NCBI RefSeq assembly: GCF_000091665.1
Contig: NC_000909.1
Coordinates: 325,539-353,579, forward strand
Direction of reading: 5' to 3'
From: Methanocaldococcus jannaschii DSM 2661
GTDB taxonomy: Archaea; AGJL01; Methanococci; Methanococcales; Methanocaldococcaceae
DNA: 28,041 nt
Under the pieces are notes generated by a model. The model was not told the DNA's origin and ran no database searches. It worked only from the letters and a program-made list of their open reading frames with translations. How positions within the stretch are numbered: the stretch's first letter is position 1; every line of letters begins with the position of its first letter. This document shows positions 116 through 11,867 of the stretch, piece after piece. The translations under genes were made by a program, and so were the position numbers.

Positions 116-265
116 AAACACCAACCCCTTTTACCGTTGCTATATTTTATCTTGGTTATTGGTTTTATATATTTTGGCTAAACCTTACTCTCTAAGTTTG
201 TTAATGGTAGATATTAGAAAAATTAATAGCAGAGGATAAAAAAAGAAAGACTACACCAGCAGACA

Positions 266-377
266 GTGTATTACAAAAAGAGAATACATTGAATTACAAT
301 GGCATACAAAAAAGAATACAAAAGAATACAAAGTAATACACAATAGAATACACTAAAATACAATGTCATACAAAAAT
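266..377. repeat. Three tandem ~32-bp units (281-312, 313-344, 345-376), each made of three ~10-12-bp WWTACA sub-repeats, plus a degenerate copy at 266-280
   Basis: TACA cores start at 272, 285, 295, 305, 317, 327, 337, 349, 359 and 369 (spacings 13,10,10,12,10,10,12,10,10). Units 1 and 3 are identical at 28/32 positions. Confidence 0.85.
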
Positions 378-398
378 AGCTAAATTTTAAAAATAGAT

Positions 399-866
399 TT
401 ACTCATAAGCTTCTGTTTCCTGTTTTTCCGTGTTTTCTTCTTTTACTTCTTCAATGTTTGCCATCATCCCAGCAACATTTATAGGTGGGAGTATAACCGG
501 AGGAATATTAGCGTTCGCCGTAATAGTTGAAATCAAAGCCCTAACATAAGGGAATAATATTGCAACAGAATTAATCTCTGCAAATTGTCTAACCTTATCA
601 ATCGCTTCCTCAATAACTTCAAAGAAACCCCATACTTCAACAGACAAATAAACTGGACTTTTAGCAAAATCCTTTTTCTCCCCAGCTGTTATTTTAATTA
701 TCGTTATAAATTTATTTGGCTCATTTTTATTGTATCTTATCTCTGTATCAATATTTACATTCAACCTTATCTTTTCATCTTTTTCAGGGACTTCATTTAG
801 TATAAATTCAATATGCTTAACAATATAATTGGAAAACTTTAAAGCACACTTTGGTGGAGCTTCCAT
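399..866 (-). CDS. SecB-like chaperone (155 aa)
   Basis: Same length as E. coli SecB and alignable by eye. AILFPYVRALISTITANANIPPVILPPINV matches SecB [30 protein letters not shown], and both have an acidic C-terminal tail. Last gene of a tight three-gene operon (2-nt gap to the upstream gene). Confidence 0.8.
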   Translation of the reverse strand: MEAPPKCALKFSNYIVKHIEFILNEVPEKDEKIRLNVNIDTEIRYNKNEPNKFITIIKITAGEKKDFAKSPVYLSVEVWGFFEVIEEAIDKVRQFAEINSVAILFPYVRALISTITANANIPPVILPPINVAGMMANIEEVKEENTEKQETEAYE

Positions 867-868
867 TT

Positions 869-1255
869 TTATGCCACCTCATAATTATTACAAATATGTA
901 AACTATCCTGCTGAAGGGTAATAATATAACTTGATTCTTCACCAACTTTTATATCCTCTTTAAATTTATATCCCTTCCTAAATTTACAATACATTTTATT
1001 ATCAGCATTTATTTCCTTTAAATTAATCTTAATAACAATCTGGTTGTGGGTGTTAACATTACAAGTTTGGGACTTCATTATTATCTCTCGATATTTAGCA
1101 ATATCCTCTTCAGTTAAGACCTCATCTGTAGCTAATGGACCTGGCTTTATCTTCCCAAACCCACACTCAATTAAATCCCTCTCAAATTGTTCTAAATCAA
1201 TATTTTCAAAATGTTTGTAAATTCTTTTTAATTCTTTTAATAAATCAAATGTCAT
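869..1255 (-). CDS. Hypothetical 128-aa protein; candidate antitoxin/adaptor of the ART-SecB-like operon
   Basis: Sits between the ART-like gene (8-nt gap) and the SecB-like gene (2-nt gap). I recognise no family. N-terminal half looks helical, C-terminal half beta-rich. Confidence 0.6.
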   Translation of the reverse strand: MTFDLLKELKRIYKHFENIDLEQFERDLIECGFGKIKPGPLATDEVLTEEDIAKYREIIMKSQTCNVNTHNQIVIKINLKEINADNKMYCKFRKGYKFKEDIKVGEESSYIITLQQDSLHICNNYEVA

Positions 1256-1263
1256 AATCTCAC

Positions 1264-1908
1264 CTATATTCCTAAATCTTCTTTATAAATTTCAGTATAA
1301 ATTAAGAATTTATCTATTGTCTTCTCCAAATCATACCACTCCAACTTTTTTATAACACTTGGATTTTTTACACACACTTGAATCTCAGGCATAAATGTTA
1401 ATCTATGTGTTCTTTCTTTATATTTTTTATTTTTCTCACGATTTTCTATTTTTTGATATTTTTTTACGGGTATTGGAAACAAAGCTCTAACAATATCGAA
1501 TCTTTTATTATAACCCAGCTCCTTGTTCTTGAACATATAATTTATAACAACCCCTTCCGCACACATGTCTCCTCTGAGTTTATCTAACCTCAATTTCGTA
1601 GTGTTAATTAACTTATACATCATGTCAAATAGGAGTTTATGTTCAATCTTCGTTAAATCAAAAATCCTCGATTCCTCACATATAACTTCTGCTTTTATTA
1701 TTGCAAAATTTTTTAGTAATCTATTGCGGTTCTTCTCCTTATACCATATCCACTTAAACGCATGGAACTCCTCTTCATAAAAATAAATACCATCCCCAAG
1801 CCAGTGGTTATCTCCTTGGCTGGGTAGTATCTCCTTACTTTCCATTATTTTTTCTGCACTCTTTCTGTCGGTCCCATGATACAGTGTCATTCTAACATAC
1901 GACATCAT
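1264..1908 (-). CDS. PARP-like (H-Y-E class) ADP-ribosyltransferase domain protein; candidate toxin
   Basis: TLYHGTDRKSAEKIMESKEILPSQGDNHWLGDGIYFYEE aligns with the PARP catalytic core (LWHGSR...GKGIYFAD). A later PEIQVCVKNPSVI resembles the catalytic-Glu strand (NEYIVYD). The N-terminus also recalls DUF3990-type LYHG proteins. The true start may be Met7 (1890). Confidence 0.6.
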   Translation of the reverse strand: MMSYVRMTLYHGTDRKSAEKIMESKEILPSQGDNHWLGDGIYFYEEEFHAFKWIWYKEKNRNRLLKNFAIIKAEVICEESRIFDLTKIEHKLLFDMMYKLINTTKLRLDKLRGDMCAEGVVINYMFKNKELGYNKRFDIVRALFPIPVKKYQKIENREKNKKYKERTHRLTFMPEIQVCVKNPSVIKKLEWYDLEKTIDKFLIYTEIYKEDLGI

Positions 1909-1967
1909 CCACCAATATTACTAATTACCCTAATAGTGTATCAGTTCCGAACTTTCCAGTATATTTT

Positions 1968-2007
1968 ATAGTATATATACAGGAGTATATACCTGTATAT
2001 ATACTAT
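1968..2007. promoter_or_regulatory. Perfect inverted repeat (16-bp arms, 8-bp spacer) rich in TATA-like sequence, 60 bp upstream of the ART-like gene
   Basis: ATAGTATATATACAGG (1968-1983) and CCTGTATATATACTAT (1992-2007) are exact reverse complements. Confidence 0.6.
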
Positions 2008-2225
2008 TATATACTCTATCTGATACTTTCCTGCCGACACCTATATTTACTTTTCGATTAATATCAACAGGGAACCTACATAGGTAGTAATAACAGATAC
2101 TGCTGAGTATCCATAGGACCAGCAGATAATATATTAATGATTGTTGATATGCTCACAATAGGACCAGAAAAAGAGAAGTTGAAAAGTTATTTTACAGTCA
2201 AATCGTAGCATTTTAAAACAGCCAC

Positions 2226-2633
2226 TTATTCAGTCCACCAAGTTCCAACAGCAATATCATACTTAGCAACTTTTTTACCTTCCTCCCCTATAGGTCCAAT
2301 AATTTTAAATCTAAACTTTTGTCCAGGGTCAACGTCCCTATGGACGTCCATGAACTCATCAATTAAAACACCATCAGCATCATAAAATCTTGCCTTTATT
2401 TCTACAAATTTTAACCTTTTATTACCTACATTCTGAGCAACCCCTTCAACATACACAGTCCCATAATCTTTCCTAACTAAATGATGCTCTAATATCTGAA
2501 CTGGGCAAGTCTCAGTTTCTGCAGATGCGGTGCTTGAAGAATAGTCAGTTCCTCCTCCACCAGTGCAACCACATATAGCAACCACACCACATACTATACT
2601 GGCAAGTATCAAAAACACACCCAGCCTTTTCAT
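2226..2633 (-). CDS. Secreted/lipoprotein-like protein with an FxLYD-like beta domain
   Basis: N-terminal signal peptide with a Cys-containing lipobox-like motif (VVAICGCTGGGG). The C-terminal domain contains RFYDADG, reminiscent of the FxLYD domain family. Confidence 0.55.
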   Translation of the reverse strand: MKRLGVFLILASIVCGVVAICGCTGGGGTDYSSSTASAETETCPVQILEHHLVRKDYGTVYVEGVAQNVGNKRLKFVEIKARFYDADGVLIDEFMDVHRDVDPGQKFRFKIIGPIGEEGKKVAKYDIAVGTWWTE

Positions 2634-3637: not shown

Positions 3638-3961
3638 TTATGCAGTTGAATTTACAATTTTATAATTAATAACGATGTCTTGGCCTTCTCTAAGAGTATC
3701 GAAAGTTTCAATAAGATCTAATATTTCTAAAGCTCTTTTACCTCTTGGGGTTATTGAATAATATACTTTTCCAAATTTATAAGGAGATTCTCCTTCTCTT
3801 TTTTCAACGAAACCTTCATTAACTAAATCAGATAATATTGAGTCCAAAATTTTTGGATGTAAATTTAAAGTCTTCTGTAATTCACTAAAATACATATCTT
3901 TACTATTTAGTAATTTTAAAACATCCTTTACGTGTTTTTTTGCCAGTATTTTGAGTATCAT
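3638..3961 (-). CDS. Winged helix-turn-helix transcriptional regulator (ArsR/PadR-like)
   Basis: 107 aa with a typical wHTH pattern (FSELQKTLNLHPKILDSILSDLVNEGFVEKRE...YYSITPRGKRAL). Transcribed divergently from the MCM operon. Confidence 0.65.
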   Translation of the reverse strand: MILKILAKKHVKDVLKLLNSKDMYFSELQKTLNLHPKILDSILSDLVNEGFVEKREGESPYKFGKVYYSITPRGKRALEILDLIETFDTLREGQDIVINYKIVNSTA

Positions 3962-4018
3962 AATATGACCTGCCTCTTTTTGTTTTTATTGTAATTTTTT
4001 ACAACTACTTTTATTTAT

Positions 4019-4118
4019 GTGATTATTCACCAAAGCGTGATGAATCACCAAAAAATATATATATCAGTTTAATTATATTACTCACCAAATAGTGATAAAT
4101 TACTACATAGTGATAATA
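4019..4118. promoter_or_regulatory. Divergent promoter/operator region with repeated GTGA-N4-TCAC(CAAA) palindromes
   Basis: GTGATTATTCAC (4019-4030), GTGATGAATCAC (4037-4048), TCACCAAATAGTGA (4082-4095) and a further AGTGATAA at 4109-4116. Three copies are followed by CCAAA. Confidence 0.55.
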
Positions 4119-4309
4119 TGAAAATCAGAAAGAAAACATGGAGATTGCCAAAAGATGCAACAATATCATTCAAAGGAGTTGTTAAACCAATAGGAAACTC
4201 TGGAATGATCTTAATACCTAAAGATTACGTTGGATGCAAAGTTTTAGTTACAATACTTGATGAACTCGGAAATGAAGAATTTGAGATTGTAGAAACTGAG
4301 AAATCATAA
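4118..4309 (+). CDS. Small AbrB/SpoVT-like DNA-binding protein (resembles the archaeal DUF2080 'transposon-encoded' family)
   Basis: 63 aa. [22 protein letters not shown] fits the swapped-hairpin AbrB-type motif. First gene of the plus-strand operon. Confidence 0.5.
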
Positions 4310-4323
4310 ATTAGGGGATAAAC

Positions 4324-6603
4324 ATGGTTTATGATAACATAAAAAGAGAAATTATAGGCATGTTAAAAAGAATGCCTAACAAACAAGCAGATTGGGATAA
4401 TGATTTATTACCTACTTTAAAGGCAATGTTTAACCCAAAATCAGTTTCAAACGCTAAATCCCAATTAATCTCTGAAGGTGTTATATCTCAAGAAATTGTT
4501 GATGGAAAGAAAATTATAACTCTCATTAAGGACCCTTATGAGCTTCAAGCTCCCAACGTATTTGACGAGGAAATGTTCTTGGCATACTATACTGATAAAT
4601 TAAAGGAGTATTTTAAACACAAGTTATCAACTGAAGGACCAGAGTGGGATATTTTTGACGTGAAAGAATTTATAATGCACTTCCCTGAATCTGGAGATTT
4701 GAATGATAAGTTAATAGAACACCCTTATGAAGTTAGGAAATCGATAACAAATGTATATATTGAAGCTTATGAAGAATTATTCAACGAAACACCTAACGTA
4801 GAATTTATCCACATTAGAAATCCTATTGATTGTAGAATTTCCTTATCTGAATTATCATCTGCCCATAAAGGAAAATTAGTAGAGTTTAGAGCAATGATTC
4901 TCCAAGCAACGAAACTTAAACTAAGGTATGCTAAGGGATTCTATTACTGTCCAAAGTGCGGAGCTACAAAGACATTGGATTTAGGATTTTGGGATAAACC
5001 TAAAGAAGTTGGAAAGTCATTAACATGTCCTGCTGATGGCTGTGATTGTAAAGGACTAATATTTGATGAAGATTTATCTGGCAAAGTTGATTTTCAGGAG
5101 ATTAAAGTTCAAACACCATTACAGGAGTCAATATATGCAAATAAACATTCTACAACTGTCTTCTATGAATTTAACAAACCAAAGAAAGCGGTATATTCTG
5201 GGTATGTGAAGATTGTTGGAGTTCCAATTGTTAAAGAAAATAAAAACGGGAGTGTTGGAGAATTATACATTCATGCTTTTTACATTGAAAAGGATGATGA
5301 AGATATTGAAGAAATAGCTAAAAACCTCAATGAAAAAGATTTAGAGCTTATTAATAGAATTGCTAAGGATAAGAACGTTATTCAAAAGCTTTCTGACTAT
5401 GCTTTTAGGGAAGTTACTGGATATGATATGATAAAAAGAGCTGTTTTATTACAGTTGGTTAGTAGTGGGACTAATATTGACATGAGAACGTCCATCCATA
5501 TTTTGATGATTTCCGACCCTGGGGTTGGAAAATCAACATTGATGGAGTCATTAATTCAGAAGTTTCCATTTGTTAAGAAAGTTTATGCTGTTACTTCATC
5601 AGGTCCTGGATTGGTCGGGTCTGTAGTCAGGGAGAAGGCAGAGTTTGGAGATAGTTGGGTATTAAAAGCTGGGGTTTTAACTGAGGCTGATGGGGGAGTT
5701 GTTTGTATTGACGAATTTTCAAGGAATAAAGAGGTATATGATTATCTCTTGGGAGTTATGGAACAGCAGAAGATTGAGATTAACAAGGCTGGAGTTATTG
5801 ATGCAGTATTGCCAGCAAGGGTTGCTATTTTAGCAGCATGTAATCCAAGGTTTGGAAGGTTTAATCCTGATTTAACCGTATGGGAGCAGATAAACTTGCC
5901 TAAGGAGTTATTGGATAGGTTTGATTTGATTTTTGTGATTAAAGATAAGATTGATAAAAAGAAAGATGAGGATATAGCAGATTTCTCTATTGATAATTAT
6001 AATTCAAAAGTTAGAGAGAGAAAAGGAAAATCTTCGGGTAAAAAGTTTGTAATAAATGGTGTTGAGTTGAATGATGAGTTGTTGCTGAAGTATGTTCTTT
6101 ATGCAAGACAAATAGAGCCAGAAATATCAGATGAAGCTCGTAAGATTATAAAAGAGTATTATGTTTCTGTAAGAAAAATGAGCGAAGCAAAAGGAACTTT
6201 TGGAATATCTGCAAGACAGTTAGGGTCTATAATCAGATTAGCAGTTGCTCATGCAAAGTTAAGATTGTCGGAAGTTGTTAAAGCGGTTGATGCAGAAGAG
6301 GCTATAAGGTTAGTTGATACCTGCTTAAAACAAATCGCCTACGACCCTGAGAGTGGTTCAATAGACATTGACAAAATAGCTGGAACTCCGAAATCTAAGA
6401 GGGATAAGGTTGAGAAGGTTCTGAATATTATTAAGGAAATTTCTAACTCAAGAGATGACGGCTTAGCTCCTGAAGAAGAGATATATGAAAGGGCTGAAAG
6501 GGCGGGTTTATCTGAGAAGGAAGTTGAGGATGCTATTAATTATCTGAAACGGGTTGGAGACATTTATTCTCCAAAGTCGGGTTATTGGCAACTTATGTCT
6601 TGA
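4324..6603 (+). CDS. mcm: MCM-family replicative helicase, divergent element-borne copy
   Basis: Cys cluster CPKCG...CPADGCDC, Walker A DPGVGKST, Walker B CIDEF, sensor-1 AACNP, and SARQLGSIIRL (MCM arginine-finger/sensor-2 region). Confidence 0.92.
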   Translation: MVYDNIKREIIGMLKRMPNKQADWDNDLLPTLKAMFNPKSVSNAKSQLISEGVISQEIVDGKKIITLIKDPYELQAPNVFDEEMFLAYYTDKLKEYFKHKLSTEGPEWDIFDVKEFIMHFPESGDLNDKLIEHPYEVRKSITNVYIEAYEELFNETPNVEFIHIRNPIDCRISLSELSSAHKGKLVEFRAMILQATKLKLRYAKGFYYCPKCGATKTLDLGFWDKPKEVGKSLTCPADGCDCKGLIFDEDLSGKVDFQEIKVQTPLQESIYANKHSTTVFYEFNKPKKAVYSGYVKIVGVPIVKENKNGSVGELYIHAFYIEKDDEDIEEIAKNLNEKDLELINRIAKDKNVIQKLSDYAFREVTGYDMIKRAVLLQLVSSGTNIDMRTSIHILMISDPGVGKSTLMESLIQKFPFVKKVYAVTSSGPGLVGSVVREKAEFGDSWVLKAGVLTEADGGVVCIDEFSRNKEVYDYLLGVMEQQKIEINKAGVIDAVLPARVAILAACNPRFGRFNPDLTVWEQINLPKELLDRFDLIFVIKDKIDKKKDEDIADFSIDNYNSKVRERKGKSSGKKFVINGVELNDELLLKYVLYARQIEPEISDEARKIIKEYYVSVRKMSEAKGTFGISARQLGSIIRLAVAHAKLRLSEVVKAVDAEEAIRLVDTCLKQIAYDPESGSIDIDKIAGTPKSKRDKVEKVLNIIKEISNSRDDGLAPEEEIYERAERAGLSEKEVEDAINYLKRVGDIYSPKSGYWQLMS

Positions 6604-6612
6604 TAATCAGAG

Positions 6613-6957
6613 GTGGGGAGTATGATTGAAATTAATTTCTCTCACGATTATTTCAAATTAAGAGAACAGAGATTTACAACAATTAGAAGCAAGCATTATC
6701 TGAAAAATAAGGGTTTGAGAGTTGGAGATGTTGTAAAAATTAAACATCCAAGTGGAGAGTTTCCTGCTAAAATCGTTGGAGTTGAGGTTAAAAGAATTTG
6801 TGATATTCCTTTAGAAATATTAAAGAAAGATGCAGAATTCGAAGGTTTTAACATAAAAACACATCAAGATTTTGTAGATTTGCTTAATAGTTTTATCCCT
6901 TACAAGTCTAATAAATTGACGACTGAAAAAGCCATTATTTACTTAGAAAGAGTGTGA
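6613..6957 (+). CDS. ASCH/PUA-like domain protein
   Basis: 114 aa. The N-terminal YFKLREQRFTTIRS...VGDVVKI pattern resembles ASCH/DUF3850-type domains. 9-nt gap after mcm. Confidence 0.45.
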   Translation: MGSMIEINFSHDYFKLREQRFTTIRSKHYLKNKGLRVGDVVKIKHPSGEFPAKIVGVEVKRICDIPLEILKKDAEFEGFNIKTHQDFVDLLNSFIPYKSNKLTTEKAIIYLERV

Positions 6958-6961
6958 TAGC

Positions 6962-7492
6962 ATGGCTAAGGCAATCATTGACATAGAAACTACTGGACTC
7001 AACCCTATGGAGCACCGTATAGTTGCCATTGGTGTAAAACTTGGGGATAGGGATATTATTCTGATGGATGAGTCAGAGTATTATTTGTTGGTTAATTTTT
7101 GGGATACGGTGGAAAAAGAAGGTATTGAGAAAATAATCGGCTTTAATATTGACTTTGATTGGCAGTTCCTAAAATTGAGAAGCTTATATCATAGGTTGAA
7201 AATAAAGCATTTCAGAAAATACCAAGGTAGAGTAGATTTAAGGCAGATATTGAATGGGAGTGGTGGGCAGTATAGGAAGGGAACAAAGTTAGTGGATTAC
7301 TGTAGGTTTTTGGGAATTGACGTTCCAGAAGATGACGCTAATGGTAGTGAAATTCCAGAGCTTTGGGAGAAGTTTGAAGAGGAAGGGGATGAAGAAGCTA
7401 AACGCAAAATCTGTGAGCATTTAAAGAGGGATTTAGAGAGAACTTGGGAGTTGTATAAAATATTAGTTGATTGTGGTTTGATTGAGGAATAA
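6962..7492 (+). CDS. DEDDh 3'-5' exonuclease (RNase H-like / DnaQ-like fold)
   Basis: ExoI DIETTG, ExoII NIDFDWQFL, ExoIII H-x4-D (CEHLKRDLE). Confidence 0.75.
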   Translation: MAKAIIDIETTGLNPMEHRIVAIGVKLGDRDIILMDESEYYLLVNFWDTVEKEGIEKIIGFNIDFDWQFLKLRSLYHRLKIKHFRKYQGRVDLRQILNGSGGQYRKGTKLVDYCRFLGIDVPEDDANGSEIPELWEKFEEEGDEEAKRKICEHLKRDLERTWELYKILVDCGLIEE

Positions 7493-7770
7493 TGCCTTTG
7501 GTGGGCTTTATGAAAGAGAAAAAGAGGGCAACATTTTATCTTTATAAAAACATTGACGGTAGGAAACTTAGGTATCTTTTGCATAAGTTGGAAAATGTTG
7601 AAAATGTGGATATAGATACTCTAAGAAGAGCAATTGAAGCTGAAAAGAAATATAAGAGGTCTATAACTCTCACAGAGGAAGAGGAGGTTATAATACAGAG
7701 GTTAGGTAAAAGTGCTAATTTGTTGTTGAACTGCGAGTTGGTGAAGTTGGATGAGGGAGAAAGAGCTTAA
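7492..7770 (+). CDS. Hypothetical protein (92 aa), translationally coupled (TAATG) to the exonuclease gene
   Basis: ORF in operon context immediately upstream of, and overlapping, the integrase gene. An excisionase-like role is only a guess. Confidence 0.5.
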   Translation: MPLVGFMKEKKRATFYLYKNIDGRKLRYLLHKLENVENVDIDTLRRAIEAEKKYKRSITLTEEEEVIIQRLGKSANLLLNCELVKLDEGERA

Positions 7771-8743
7771 ACATATTGAAAATCTTTTACTTTTGAAGGT
7801 TAAGAAAGAGAAAATTGAAGAGACAGATAAAATTAAAGAATATTTAAAAAGGTTTGAAGATGAAAGGAGATTTGATGGGATAAAAGAGAGCACTATAAAG
7901 AGTGATTTAGACAGGTTGAGAGTGTTTTTAGATTATTGCATTAATTACCTTGGAAAAAATCCAGAAGAGTTAAAAACAAGTGATTTCGTTAAATTTTTTA
8001 ATTATTTAGATACGGTTAGAAAAGTATCTAAAAGTTCGCAGAGGAAGTATTTTTTATTATTAAAAGTGTTTTATAGAGTTTTAAGAATGTATAATGTTAT
8101 TCAGGAGTTCGTTGAAGAGAGTAAGGATAGGAAGAGGTTCGCGAGAATTGAAATCCAACATTATGATGCTGTTGATGCTGAAATGTTGAATATGATTTTA
8201 AAGAAGATAATTGAAAGTGGGAGTAGGACCAGGATAAGGGATGCGTTAATAATCAGGTTACTTTGGGACACTGGTTGTAGGGTTTCTGAGGTTCTTAATT
8301 TGAAATACAAGGATTGTGATTTAGACAATGGCATATTTAAGATTCGAAATACCAAAACTCATGAGGAGAGGACTGTTGTTTGTTCATCGGATACTTTAGA
8401 GTTGCTTAGGAATTATGTTCAGTTTAATGTAAGGCAAGGTTCAGATGACTATTTGTTCCAGAATTCTCAGGGTGGGAGGGTTAGAAAAGAGTGGATTAGT
8501 GAAGTGTTTAGAAAGGCAGTGAATGAATTGAAAGAGGAGGGTAAAATCCCTAAAAATAGGCGTATTGTTATTCATAGTATAAGACACGGAAGGGCGGTAG
8601 ATTTATTGAATAAGGGAGTGCCCATCGACATCGTAAAGGAATACTTAGGACATAAGTCGATGAACACTACTTTGATTTATGCTCATTCTAAGGAGAGGGC
8701 TGAGAGTTTGGAGTTTATTAAAAAGTTGTTGAGAATCCAGTAA
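7751..8743 (+). CDS. int: Tyrosine recombinase / integrase (XerC/D-like)
   Basis: Catalytic signature: DTGCRVSE (Arg), HSIRHGRA (His-x-x-Arg), LGHKS, and LIYAH (nucleophilic Tyr). Confidence 0.92.
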   Translation: MREKELKHIENLLLLKVKKEKIEETDKIKEYLKRFEDERRFDGIKESTIKSDLDRLRVFLDYCINYLGKNPEELKTSDFVKFFNYLDTVRKVSKSSQRKYFLLLKVFYRVLRMYNVIQEFVEESKDRKRFARIEIQHYDAVDAEMLNMILKKIIESGSRTRIRDALIIRLLWDTGCRVSEVLNLKYKDCDLDNGIFKIRNTKTHEERTVVCSSDTLELLRNYVQFNVRQGSDDYLFQNSQGGRVRKEWISEVFRKAVNELKEEGKIPKNRRIVIHSIRHGRAVDLLNKGVPIDIVKEYLGHKSMNTTLIYAHSKERAESLEFIKKLLRIQ

Positions 8744-9389: not shown

Positions 9390-10499
9390 TTATGGTAACC
9401 ATGTGCTCTCATCTTTAATTTTTTCAGGTAAATATGTATTAACAACATACTTTAAACCGTACTTAGCTAAAGACTGTTGTTCTGCCCTGACTCCCATATC
9501 GAGCATCTGTTTTAAAGCTTTCTGCCATTCTGGGAAACTTCTGACAAAATCGTCATTCTTTAAACCATCTTTTATCCTTTTAATATCCTGCTCTTTTAAT
9601 GGATGAGTTGGTAAATCGTAATCAATGATATCCTGTGGGGTAACTCCAATCAACCTTGCTGCAGGAATTGATAATTTATCAGCTAAGTGTATGGCTTTAC
9701 CACTCCCAACCTTTAAGGTCCTGTAAATGTTTAAATACCCATAAGGGTCTCCGTCTGTAAATACTAAAACAGGCAAGTCGTGTTCTTCATGTAATCTTTT
9801 TATAAACCTTCTTGTAGCCCTTGCTGGAACCCCTTTTAATGAAACCAGTATGCAGTTATGCTTATCCCAGAATCTCTCTGCATTTAATCTTGCAAACATA
9901 CCTGATGTTTCTATTGCCAATATAAAGTCAGCATCTGTCTCAAGGTTTAATTTTGTTACATCGTTTGGGATGTTGTATGCTCCAGTCCCCAATTTTGTAC
10001 AATCAACGACAAGTTCTCCTTCTGGTGTTTCTTCAATAATTTTTAACGGTCCTACTACTGAAGAACCATCTTCCTCTGGAATAAATCCAAGATGTTCCCT
10101 CAACACTCCTAAAGCTGCCTCTAAATCCTCAATAACGTTGTTTGATGCTTGTTGGTCATCAAATCTTGCCTCTCCCCAGTTTTTTGAAACATAGTATGCT
10201 TCCCTTAATGTTGAAAAATCGTCTGTCTCTAACAACTGTTTAGCAAACTCTAACATCTTTGTTGTTTGTGCAAAAATCTTTGCTTGATTTACAGTTAATG
10301 TTCTTGCCTTTTCTTTACCAACTAAAGTAAATGAACCCTTTTCTTTATCAAACATTGCATTAGATAAGCTTCTAATTGGCATTGTTATCTTTGGTCTTTT
10401 CCCTTTCATTAAATCCTCATACATCTTTTTAGCCAATTCAATAATTTTTTGTTTTGCAATCTCTCTTGGTTTTTTTGAGATAGCAGGAAGTTTAACCAT
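9390..10499 (-). CDS. top6A: DNA topoisomerase VI subunit A (Spo11 homolog)
   Basis: Catalytic-Tyr region LREAYYVSKNW and Toprim motifs ILAIETSGMF and FTDGDPYG. I recognise the full-length protein as the crystallised M. jannaschii Top6A. Confidence 0.95.
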   Translation of the reverse strand: MVKLPAISKKPREIAKQKIIELAKKMYEDLMKGKRPKITMPIRSLSNAMFDKEKGSFTLVGKEKARTLTVNQAKIFAQTTKMLEFAKQLLETDDFSTLREAYYVSKNWGEARFDDQQASNNVIEDLEAALGVLREHLGFIPEEDGSSVVGPLKIIEETPEGELVVDCTKLGTGAYNIPNDVTKLNLETDADFILAIETSGMFARLNAERFWDKHNCILVSLKGVPARATRRFIKRLHEEHDLPVLVFTDGDPYGYLNIYRTLKVGSGKAIHLADKLSIPAARLIGVTPQDIIDYDLPTHPLKEQDIKRIKDGLKNDDFVRSFPEWQKALKQMLDMGVRAEQQSLAKYGLKYVVNTYLPEKIKDESTWLP

Positions 10500-10772: not shown

Positions 10773-11867
10773 GTGAAATTTCTAAAAAACGTTTTAGAGG
10801 AAGGGAGTAAATTAGAGGAGTTTAATGAATTAGAATTGTCTCCAGAGGATAAGGAATTATTGGAATATTTGCAACAAACTAAAGCAAAAATTACAGTAGT
10901 TGGTTGTGGTGGAGCAGGAAATAACACTATCACAAGGTTAAAGATGGAGGGTATAGAAGGAGCTAAAACCGTTGCTATTAATACTGATGCTCAGCAATTA
11001 ATTAGAACAAAAGCTGATAAAAAAATATTAATTGGTAAAAAATTAACAAGAGGTCTTGGAGCTGGAGGTAATCCAAAAATTGGAGAAGAGGCAGCAAAAG
11101 AAAGTGCTGAAGAGATTAAAGCAGCAATACAAGATTCAGATATGGTATTTATTACTTGTGGTTTAGGAGGAGGGACTGGAACTGGTTCAGCTCCAGTCGT
11201 GGCTGAGATATCCAAAAAGATAGGGGCTTTAACTGTTGCTGTAGTTACACTACCTTTTGTAATGGAAGGGAAAGTTAGGATGAAAAATGCGATGGAAGGT
11301 TTAGAAAGGTTAAAACAACATACTGATACGTTAGTTGTTATTCCAAACGAAAAATTGTTTGAGATAGTTCCAAATATGCCGTTAAAATTGGCATTTAAGG
11401 TAGCTGATGAGGTATTAATCAACGCTGTAAAGGGATTAGTTGAATTAATAACCAAGGATGGATTGATTAATGTTGATTTTGCTGACGTTAAAGCTGTTAT
11501 GAACAATGGAGGCTTAGCGATGATTGGTATCGGGGAGAGTGATAGTGAGAAAAGGGCTAAAGAAGCTGTTAGTATGGCTTTAAACTCCCCATTATTAGAT
11601 GTTGATATAGATGGAGCTACTGGAGCATTAATACATGTAATGGGTCCTGAGGACTTAACATTAGAAGAGGCAAGAGAGGTTGTAGCCACTGTATCCTCAA
11701 GATTAGACCCAAATGCTACAATTATATGGGGAGCTACAATAGATGAGAACTTAGAGAATACCGTGAGGGTTTTATTGGTTATTACAGGAGTTCAGTCAAG
11801 AATTGAATTTACCGATACAGGATTGAAAAGAAAAAAATTAGAACTCACAGGAATTCCAAAAATTTAA
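10773..11867 (+). CDS. ftsZ: Cell division GTPase FtsZ (GTG start)
   Basis: Tubulin signature GGGTGTG and an N-terminal GCGGAGNN motif. The sequence matches the FtsZ from M. jannaschii known from structural work. Confidence 0.97.

Follow-up and report, generated by a model that had tools for sequence, protein, structure and literature searches.

A CmdT-like ADP-ribosyltransferase toxin gene in a probable toxin-antitoxin-chaperone module of a Methanocaldococcus jannaschii provirus

Introduction

Which reaction is catalyzed by a small hypothetical protein of the well-studied archaeon Methanocaldococcus jannaschii, and in which system does it take part? The gene in question was analyzed computationally within a stretch of 28,041 nucleotides of strain DSM 2661 (contig NC_000909.1, positions 325,539 to 353,579 of the forward strand), which is called the window here and from whose first letter positions are counted. 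A preliminary description had assigned the H-Y-E catalytic signature of ADP-ribosyltransferases (ARTs) to the encoded protein of 214 residues, and had regarded it as an orphan with an unknown target. Judging by its position, the gene probably bears the locus tag MJ0359, a tag of which no mention was found in the searchable literature. Our analysis indicates that the protein is probably a CmdT homologue, the toxin of a three-gene module of the CmdTAC type, located in a provirus. The genes of this module are:

1264..1908, minus strand: cmdT-like toxin gene; 214 amino acids, ATG start; H-Y-[E/Q] ADP-ribosyltransferase with H11, Y42, E175 and the conserved residues Q177, C179 and N182
869..1255, minus strand: antitoxin-like gene with CmdA-like architecture; 128 amino acids; helix pair and variable tail with a Val-Ala end
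399..866, minus strand: gene of a SecB-like, CmdC-like chaperone, Mj0357; 155 amino acids; matches Pfam SecB and PADLOC PD-T4-9_C

CmdTAC, formerly PD-T4-9, was described as a defence system acting by abortive infection in E. coli ECOR22 and O112ab:H26 (Vassallo et al. 2022 and 2024, PMC9519451 and PMC11618068; Mets et al. 2024, bioRxiv 10.1101/2024.02.24.581848), where the systems are prophage-borne. E. coli CmdT has an HY-[E,D,Q] triad, and the substitution Y41A abolishes toxicity, RNA ADP-ribosylation and defence. The enzyme blocks translation by attaching ADP-ribose to N6 of adenine where GA dinucleotides occur in single-stranded RNA (PMC11618068). CmdA, which is highly variable, consists of a helix pair and a disordered tail. 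Newly synthesised capsid protein is sensed by the SecB-like tetramer CmdC, after which ClpP degrades CmdA (PMC11618068). Both ClpP and ClpX are needed to trigger the system in E. coli.

Sequence relationships of the toxin

The homology of the 214-residue protein to CmdT is evident from the PADLOC profile PD-T4-9_A (PDLC04068), whose positions 7-168 (of 187) align with residues 10-186 (E 3e-12, 45.1 bits). A second PADLOC CmdT profile, PDLC04069, also matched (E 1.1e-7), as did phrog_14664 of PHROGs (E 1.4e-19). In a whole-genome profile search the window toxin was the sole PD-T4-9_A match of M. jannaschii, and 11 of 16 close homologues matched the same profile. The view of the protein as an orphan could not be maintained. 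A HMMER scan, seeded with an alignment of 16 relatives from a word-indexed search, assigned 1,885 representative clusters to the toxin family at E<=1e-3, 479 at E<=1e-10 and 90 at E<=1e-30.

The residues proposed to be catalytic were found exactly as described. With the first Met as residue 1, the motif LYHGT contains H11, GDGIYFY contains Y42 and PEIQVCV contains E175. An alignment of 129 full-length family members, whose identity to the query is 21-58% and whose mean column identity is 16%, has just four columns without any variation: H11, G38, G40 and Y42. A larger alignment of 137 sequences shows His at position 11 in all 130 non-gap rows and Tyr at position 42 in all 132. Position 175 is occupied by Gln in 64 and by Glu in 59 sequences, together 123/137; the third triad position is, as far as the alignment tells, Glu or Gln and not strictly Glu. 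The logo published for CmdT homologues, HY-[E,D,Q], is consistent with this (PMC11618068). Close to E175, Q177 (119/137), C179 (133/137) and N182 (109/137) are kept, and R81, D84, L85, G119, N123, F126, D138 and F144 are conserved as well. Judged by this conservation, the H-Y-E/Q signature is real, under selection and far beyond chance.

The family could also be connected to ARTs in general. Among the 129 members, matches to the Pfam PARP catalytic domain were obtained for 21 (best E 3.1e-6), to Tox-ART-HYD1 for six and to ART-PolyVal for two. The family profile places YHGT...GxGxYF on the equivalent segment of human PARP10, albeit weakly (E 1.4, PDB sequences). The single toxin protein had no match in a search of PDB sequences, and NCBIfam holds no family for it. 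The closest relatives with the same conserved residues belong to Bacillota. A tblastn search of phage and plasmid collections yielded only partial matches, from a Streptococcus satellite, Priestia and Enterococcus. In a quick-search tree the toxins of archaeal context fall into two well-supported groups, with weak deep branches.

Fold and probable reaction of the toxin

The predicted fold was found to be that of an ART. The AlphaFold2 model, built from a 16-sequence alignment, has a mean predicted local distance difference test score (pLDDT) of 87.1 and a predicted template modelling score of 0.83, and contains strands at 4-14, 40-44, 68-78, 82-84, 139-143, 176-180 and 186-191. Of the triad, H11 lies towards the end of strand 4-14, Y42 belongs to strand 40-44 and E175 immediately precedes strand 176-180. 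The same arrangement, with His on strand 1, Tyr on strand 2 and Glu before strand 5, is present in diphtheria toxin, exotoxin A and PARP. In the Foldseek comparison with the PDB the ten best matches (probability 0.6-1.0) have the ART fold, except for a cyanophage pre-ejectosome chain at rank 5. The best fold matches comprise the RES toxins 8gug, 8qnl and 6fkg, the RNA-targeting RhsP2 (7rt7), exotoxin A (2zit, 3b78), PARP4 and tankyrase. Matches in a viral structure library were to ART-PolyVal, the ARTs of polyvalent proteins. Together with the PD-T4-9_A match and the PARP matches of the family, these results support the earlier assignment to the H-Y-E class of ARTs and bear out the expectation of an ART fold.

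According to the preliminary description, the middle part of about 110 residues could be a free insert for target recognition. This proposal was rejected, as the stretch holds conserved residues and the predicted core strands 68-78, 82-84 and 139-143. In the model, family-specific additions seem to be confined to the helical part (about residues 88-136) and the basic loop 150-175. Residues 159-169 of this loop, KNKKYKERTHR, are very basic, have a lower pLDDT and precede E175. At the matching position ARTs usually carry a substrate-recognition loop. A basic loop there would suit a nucleic-acid substrate. The target, earlier regarded as unknown, has been published for the family as single-stranded mRNA (PMC11618068).

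Three other reactions were considered. Since the three best PDB fold matches are RES toxins from toxin-antitoxin complexes (8gug, E 2.5e-4; 8qnl, E 1.3e-3; 6fkg, E 4.6e-3), the protein could consume NAD+ as a glycohydrolase or phosphorylase like the RES toxins MbcT, NatT and VPA0770, and NAD+ depletion would then kill or arrest the cell. These toxins and RhsP2 are likewise neutralised by partner proteins. However, the RES toxins degrade NAD+ and the window toxin lacks a RES sequence signature, with no Pfam RES match even at E<=1. Its invariant residues are the His and Tyr of the H-Y-[E/Q] type and not the Arg-Glu-Ser pattern from which RES takes its name. The template modelling scores (TM-scores) of the RES matches, only 0.41-0.43, reflect the shared ART core, whereas at sequence level the matching family is CmdT, which was shown to ADP-ribosylate RNA (PMC11618068). 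A NAD+-consuming toxin is improbable on this evidence. RhsP2, for its part, differs in modifying the 2'-OH of structured RNA.

The target could alternatively be a protein, for example the diphthamide of archaeal elongation factor 2. This factor carries diphthamide and is a substrate of diphtheria toxin; the triad is that of the H-Y-E class, and the toxin shows weak fold matches to the complex of exotoxin A with eukaryotic elongation factor 2 (2zit, 3b78, E 0.25-0.3). However, these matches are not significant, and the closest relatives with the same conserved residues occur in Bacillota, which have no diphthamide. In contrast to diphtheria toxin, exotoxin A and PARP, which it resembles only remotely (E about 1 with PDB sequences), the family has Glu or Gln as third residue, the additional conserved residues Q177, C179 and N182 and a helical middle region, and its published members target RNA instead of protein. 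A protein-targeting ART appears still less probable than a NAD+-consuming enzyme.

DNA as the target, as in DarT, would imply a block of viral or host replication. DarT, too, is the ART toxin in a toxin-antitoxin system used for defence, and one census paper places PD-T4-9 among replication blockers. Against this, the toxin has no Pfam DarT match, and no DarT or macrodomain match was found in the three genes, where the partners are a helix-pair protein and a SecB-like protein and not a macrodomain antitoxin like DarG. Moreover, an ADP-ribose signal on DNA was obtained with DarT but not with E. coli CmdT (PMC11618068). Of the reactions considered, this one has the least in its favour and is very improbable. 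Readings of the toxin as a member of the RES, DarT or Tpt1 families were rejected, as it carries no corresponding Pfam signature.

Putative antitoxin and SecB-like chaperone

The protein encoded next to the toxin has a predicted architecture like that of CmdA. AlphaFold2 predicted its helices 2-17 and 21-30 with a pLDDT of 85-93 and most of the rest below 50. The helix pair at the N-terminus is conserved, with the motif ..EQFExDLIECGxxIKPxP, and is followed by a variable, low-confidence tail rich in aromatic residues. Library scans gave no family match for the protein. Its relatives have about 45 N-terminal residues in common (consensus ..ERLKxIxEHFxNITxEEFExNLIxAGIxxIKP) and differ in their tails. 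The M. jannaschii protein terminates in -YEVA, and -AA or -EVA ends occur in 8/13 of its bacterial relatives. Such ends are known as ClpX degrons from the Ala-Ala end of CmdA and the Val-Ala end of HigA1 of M. tuberculosis.

The third gene encodes a protein that matches Pfam SecB with 43.3 bits (cut-off 26) and PADLOC PD-T4-9_C with E 2.3e-23, and that is the only SecB match in the genome. To our knowledge, archaea possess no SecA. Mj0357 is named as a SecB homologue in a passage of an earlier article, citing Ha et al. 2004 (PMC4361572). The work of 2004 dealt with it as an export chaperone. The presence of a SecB homologue in an archaeon despite the lack of SecA, an old oddity, would be explained by its role as the chaperone of a virus-borne toxin-antitoxin-chaperone (TAC) module.

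In HigBA1-SecB(TA) of M. tuberculosis (Rv1955-1957) and other TAC systems, a SecB-like chaperone is likewise associated with an antitoxin that is addicted to it through a disordered C-terminal extension, a dependence that may be assumed for the archaeal pair; the Val-Ala end is shared with HigA1. In contrast, the toxin HigB is an RNase and not an ART, and the antitoxin HigA1 is a helix-turn-helix protein.

Gene order and control region

The three genes are arranged as in E. coli CmdTAC, co-directionally and in the order toxin, small antitoxin, SecB-like chaperone. Only 8 bases separate the toxin gene from the antitoxin gene and 2 bases the antitoxin gene from the chaperone gene. The same order, with the same antitoxin family, was found in 17/17 distinct related loci for which downstream DNA was available. 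These originate from Methanococcales genomes, archaeal metagenome contigs, Bacillota and a metagenome-assembled genome of Armatimonadota; the 13 bacterial loci are the yield of a contig scan with one peptide pattern and not a census. With the chaperone gene second downstream of the toxin gene, the locus falls under the published rule for calling CmdTAC (CmdT and CmdC within two genes). Two features were identified around the start of the operon:

1962..2013, no strand: inverted repeat, candidate promoter/operator; 22-nucleotide arms, 91% complementary, 8-nucleotide spacer
1745..2122, minus strand: conserved block of promoter region and toxin 5' end; 84% nucleotide identity with metagenome contig L011 (blastn, alignment)

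The inverted repeat is situated in TATA-rich DNA, 54-105 nucleotides upstream of the toxin start, and is a candidate promoter/operator of the operon. Its core, AGTATATATACAGG / CCTGTAT[A/G]TATACT, is retained in L011, upstream of its divergent toxin.

A 60-bp element lies just upstream of the operon promoter region (window 2158-2218) and is about 91-92% conserved in L011 (2083-2147). It occurs twice in the virus MFTV1 (L027 3896-3934 and 4866-4929), where it flanks the gene pair gp35-gp36; gp36 is a DUF2283 protein. It is possible that the element delimits cassettes within the variable region of MFTV1-like viruses.

Possible exchange of toxin-antitoxin units

Contig L011 is of archaeal origin, as indicated by a histone gene and the same neighbours, a winged helix-turn-helix (wHTH) regulator and a DUF2080 protein. 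Its DNA matches the window in two stretches, window 252-873 with L011 3280-3899 and window 1745-2122 with L011 2138-2512. The second stretch contains the promoter region, including the inverted repeat, and the first ~45 nucleotides of the toxin gene, and by its identity seems to mark one edge of an exchanged cassette. The encoded proteins are conserved to very different degrees. The chaperones are 89.7% identical, whereas the toxins share only 36.8% identity and the antitoxins can be aligned only over 36 N-terminal residues. In contrast, toxin, antitoxin and chaperone are evenly about 56% identical to those of locus L012. This pattern suggests that the toxin-antitoxin unit was swapped under a constant promoter and chaperone, which fits the modularity of TAC systems shown by experiment.

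Provirus location and distribution

The operon lies within an MFTV1-like tailed provirus of the M. jannaschii chromosome, in its accessory region. A block for replication and integration (3638-8743) contains genes for a wHTH regulator (PadR/ArsR-like), a DUF2080 protein, an MCM helicase, an exonuclease and an integrase. The order wHTH-DUF2080-MCM is common to the window provirus and MFTV1. The integrase gene is followed by the chromosomal genes for Topo VI-A and FtsZ:

4324-6603: MCM helicase, 55% identical to MFTV1 gp43
6962-7492: RNase H-like exonuclease
7751-8743: tyrosine integrase
9390-10499: chromosomal Topo VI-A
10773-11867: chromosomal FtsZ

No CmdT homologue was found in MFTV1, where other small genes fill the corresponding variable region. 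Between the operon and the replication genes, the window encodes a 135-residue protein (2226-2633, minus strand) with an N-terminus like that of a signal peptide or lipoprotein (…AICGCTGGGG…), for which Pfam gave only weak hints (DUF3426, E 0.09).

Among 40 Methanococcales species genomes, the same set in the order- and phylum-level searches, the toxin was present in three. The module is intact in two of these, M. jannaschii and the genome of locus L003. In the third (L004, G022:C4, 897-1956) it has decayed: the toxin gene is split and no longer encodes YHGT, and only 41 codons remain of the SecB-like gene, next to an intact antitoxin gene for 99 residues. The two intact modules and the joint decay of toxin and chaperone in the third genome are counted in favour of selection. 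The closest homologous module (L012 5754-7716) adjoins genes of the MJECL33 and MJECL32 families and thus has a plasmid-like context instead of a tailed provirus. Because of these plasmid genes and its sparse presence in Methanococcales, the module is regarded as mobile cargo.

The location raises the question whether the module, instead of acting as an antiviral sensor, serves mainly as an addiction or stabilisation cassette of the provirus or is an inert relic; such a role would be compatible with unchanged ART chemistry. It lies inside a provirus, is present in only three of the 40 genomes, in one of them decayed, and the ClpXP trigger pathway was not found in the genome. On the other hand, its three genes are intact, the catalytic residues are kept and the prophage-borne E. 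coli homologues are proven defence systems. The swap of toxin and antitoxin under a constant chaperone and promoter suggests diversifying selection, which is typical of defence loci. We consider a mere addiction cassette or relic unlikely, though less so than any of the other reactions discussed above.

Assignment to CmdTAC and proposed mode of action

The M. jannaschii module resembles E. coli CmdTAC in its gene order, in the matches of toxin and chaperone to the PD-T4-9_A and PD-T4-9_C profiles, in the triad, in the architecture predicted for the putative antitoxin, a helix pair followed by a disordered tail, and in its aliphatic-Ala C-terminus. Y42 corresponds to the catalytic Y41, if the near-equal numbering is taken as a guide. 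Both occupy the variable region of an integrated tailed virus. The host is different, an archaeon growing near 85 C, as the preliminary description had anticipated in speaking of a hyperthermophile.

Several observations weigh against the assignment. The link to E. coli CmdT rests on hidden Markov model matches to PADLOC profiles, and the match of the toxin to the CmdT profile is moderate (45 bits). Identity to the bacterial relatives found is only about 35-40%. Taken alone, the window toxin passes no Pfam ART cut-off; its best match, Tox-ART-HYD1 on the H..Y segment (residues 9-44; E 0.0068), reached 17.4 bits with a cut-off of 25. The Foldseek TM-scores are moderate (0.30-0.43 by query, up to 0.56 by target), and the top PDB matches are RES-type NAD+-degrading toxins and not RNA-modifying ARTs. 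The PADLOC profile PD-T4-9_B was matched neither by the 128-residue protein nor by four related antitoxins (5 tested), in which the module differs from E. coli CmdTAC. Finally, the genome, which is 99.9% complete, contains no clpP (TIGR00493 unmatched) and no clpX (best 40.7 bits, cut-off 370.75); Pfam CLP_protease matches are partial and lie in frames of 294-315 residues. With these points taken into account, we still consider it likely that the protein is the CmdT-homologue toxin of a CmdTAC/PD-T4-9-type module.

For the RNA target, the viral trigger and the protease that removes the antitoxin in the archaeon, we infer a mode of action from the E. coli systems that have been characterised. 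At rest, the N-terminal helices of the antitoxin would bind and neutralise the toxin, and its disordered, aromatic-rich tail would be held by a tetramer of the SecB-like chaperone. Upon infection by another virus, a newly made viral structural protein would compete for the chaperone, and the freed antitoxin would be degraded, releasing the toxin. The toxin would then use NAD+ to ADP-ribosylate single-stranded RNA, so that translation would stop and the infection would be aborted. H11 and Y42 would hold NAD+, and catalysis or polarisation would fall to E175, perhaps jointly with Q177.

As the genome lacks ClpXP, another protease must remove the antitoxin. Candidates are Lon or the PAN-20S proteasome, either of which may recognise the retained Val-Ala tail in place of ClpXP. 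A working archaeal abortive infection system, with a provirus-encoded RNA ADP-ribosyltransferase released by a SecB-like sensor without ClpXP, is proposed here tentatively, as a possibility that we hold to be clearly less certain than the assignment of the toxin itself.

Conclusions

The system as such is already characterised in bacteria. New are its archaeal, hyperthermophilic and ClpXP-free setting and the mosaic structure of the cassette. The published analysis of CmdTAC distribution covered RefSeq bacterial genomes only (PMC11618068), and no CmdTAC system or RNA-targeting ART of Archaea was found in the searchable literature, where CmdTAC is bacterial only. The present assignment extends CmdTAC to Archaea and provides a testable function, that of an mRNA ADP-ribosyltransferase toxin, for a hypothetical protein. 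It also raises the mechanistic question of what degrades the antitoxin in the absence of ClpXP. Practical use is conceivable as well: a thermostable CmdT could facilitate structural studies and be employed as a reagent for RNA modification. If the proposed mode of action is true, no RNA-ADP-ribosylating immune effector and no toxin-antitoxin-chaperone defence would have been shown in Archaea before this module, which would work near 85 C. The module would then also exemplify, in nature, the swapping of toxin-antitoxin units while chaperone and promoter stay constant.

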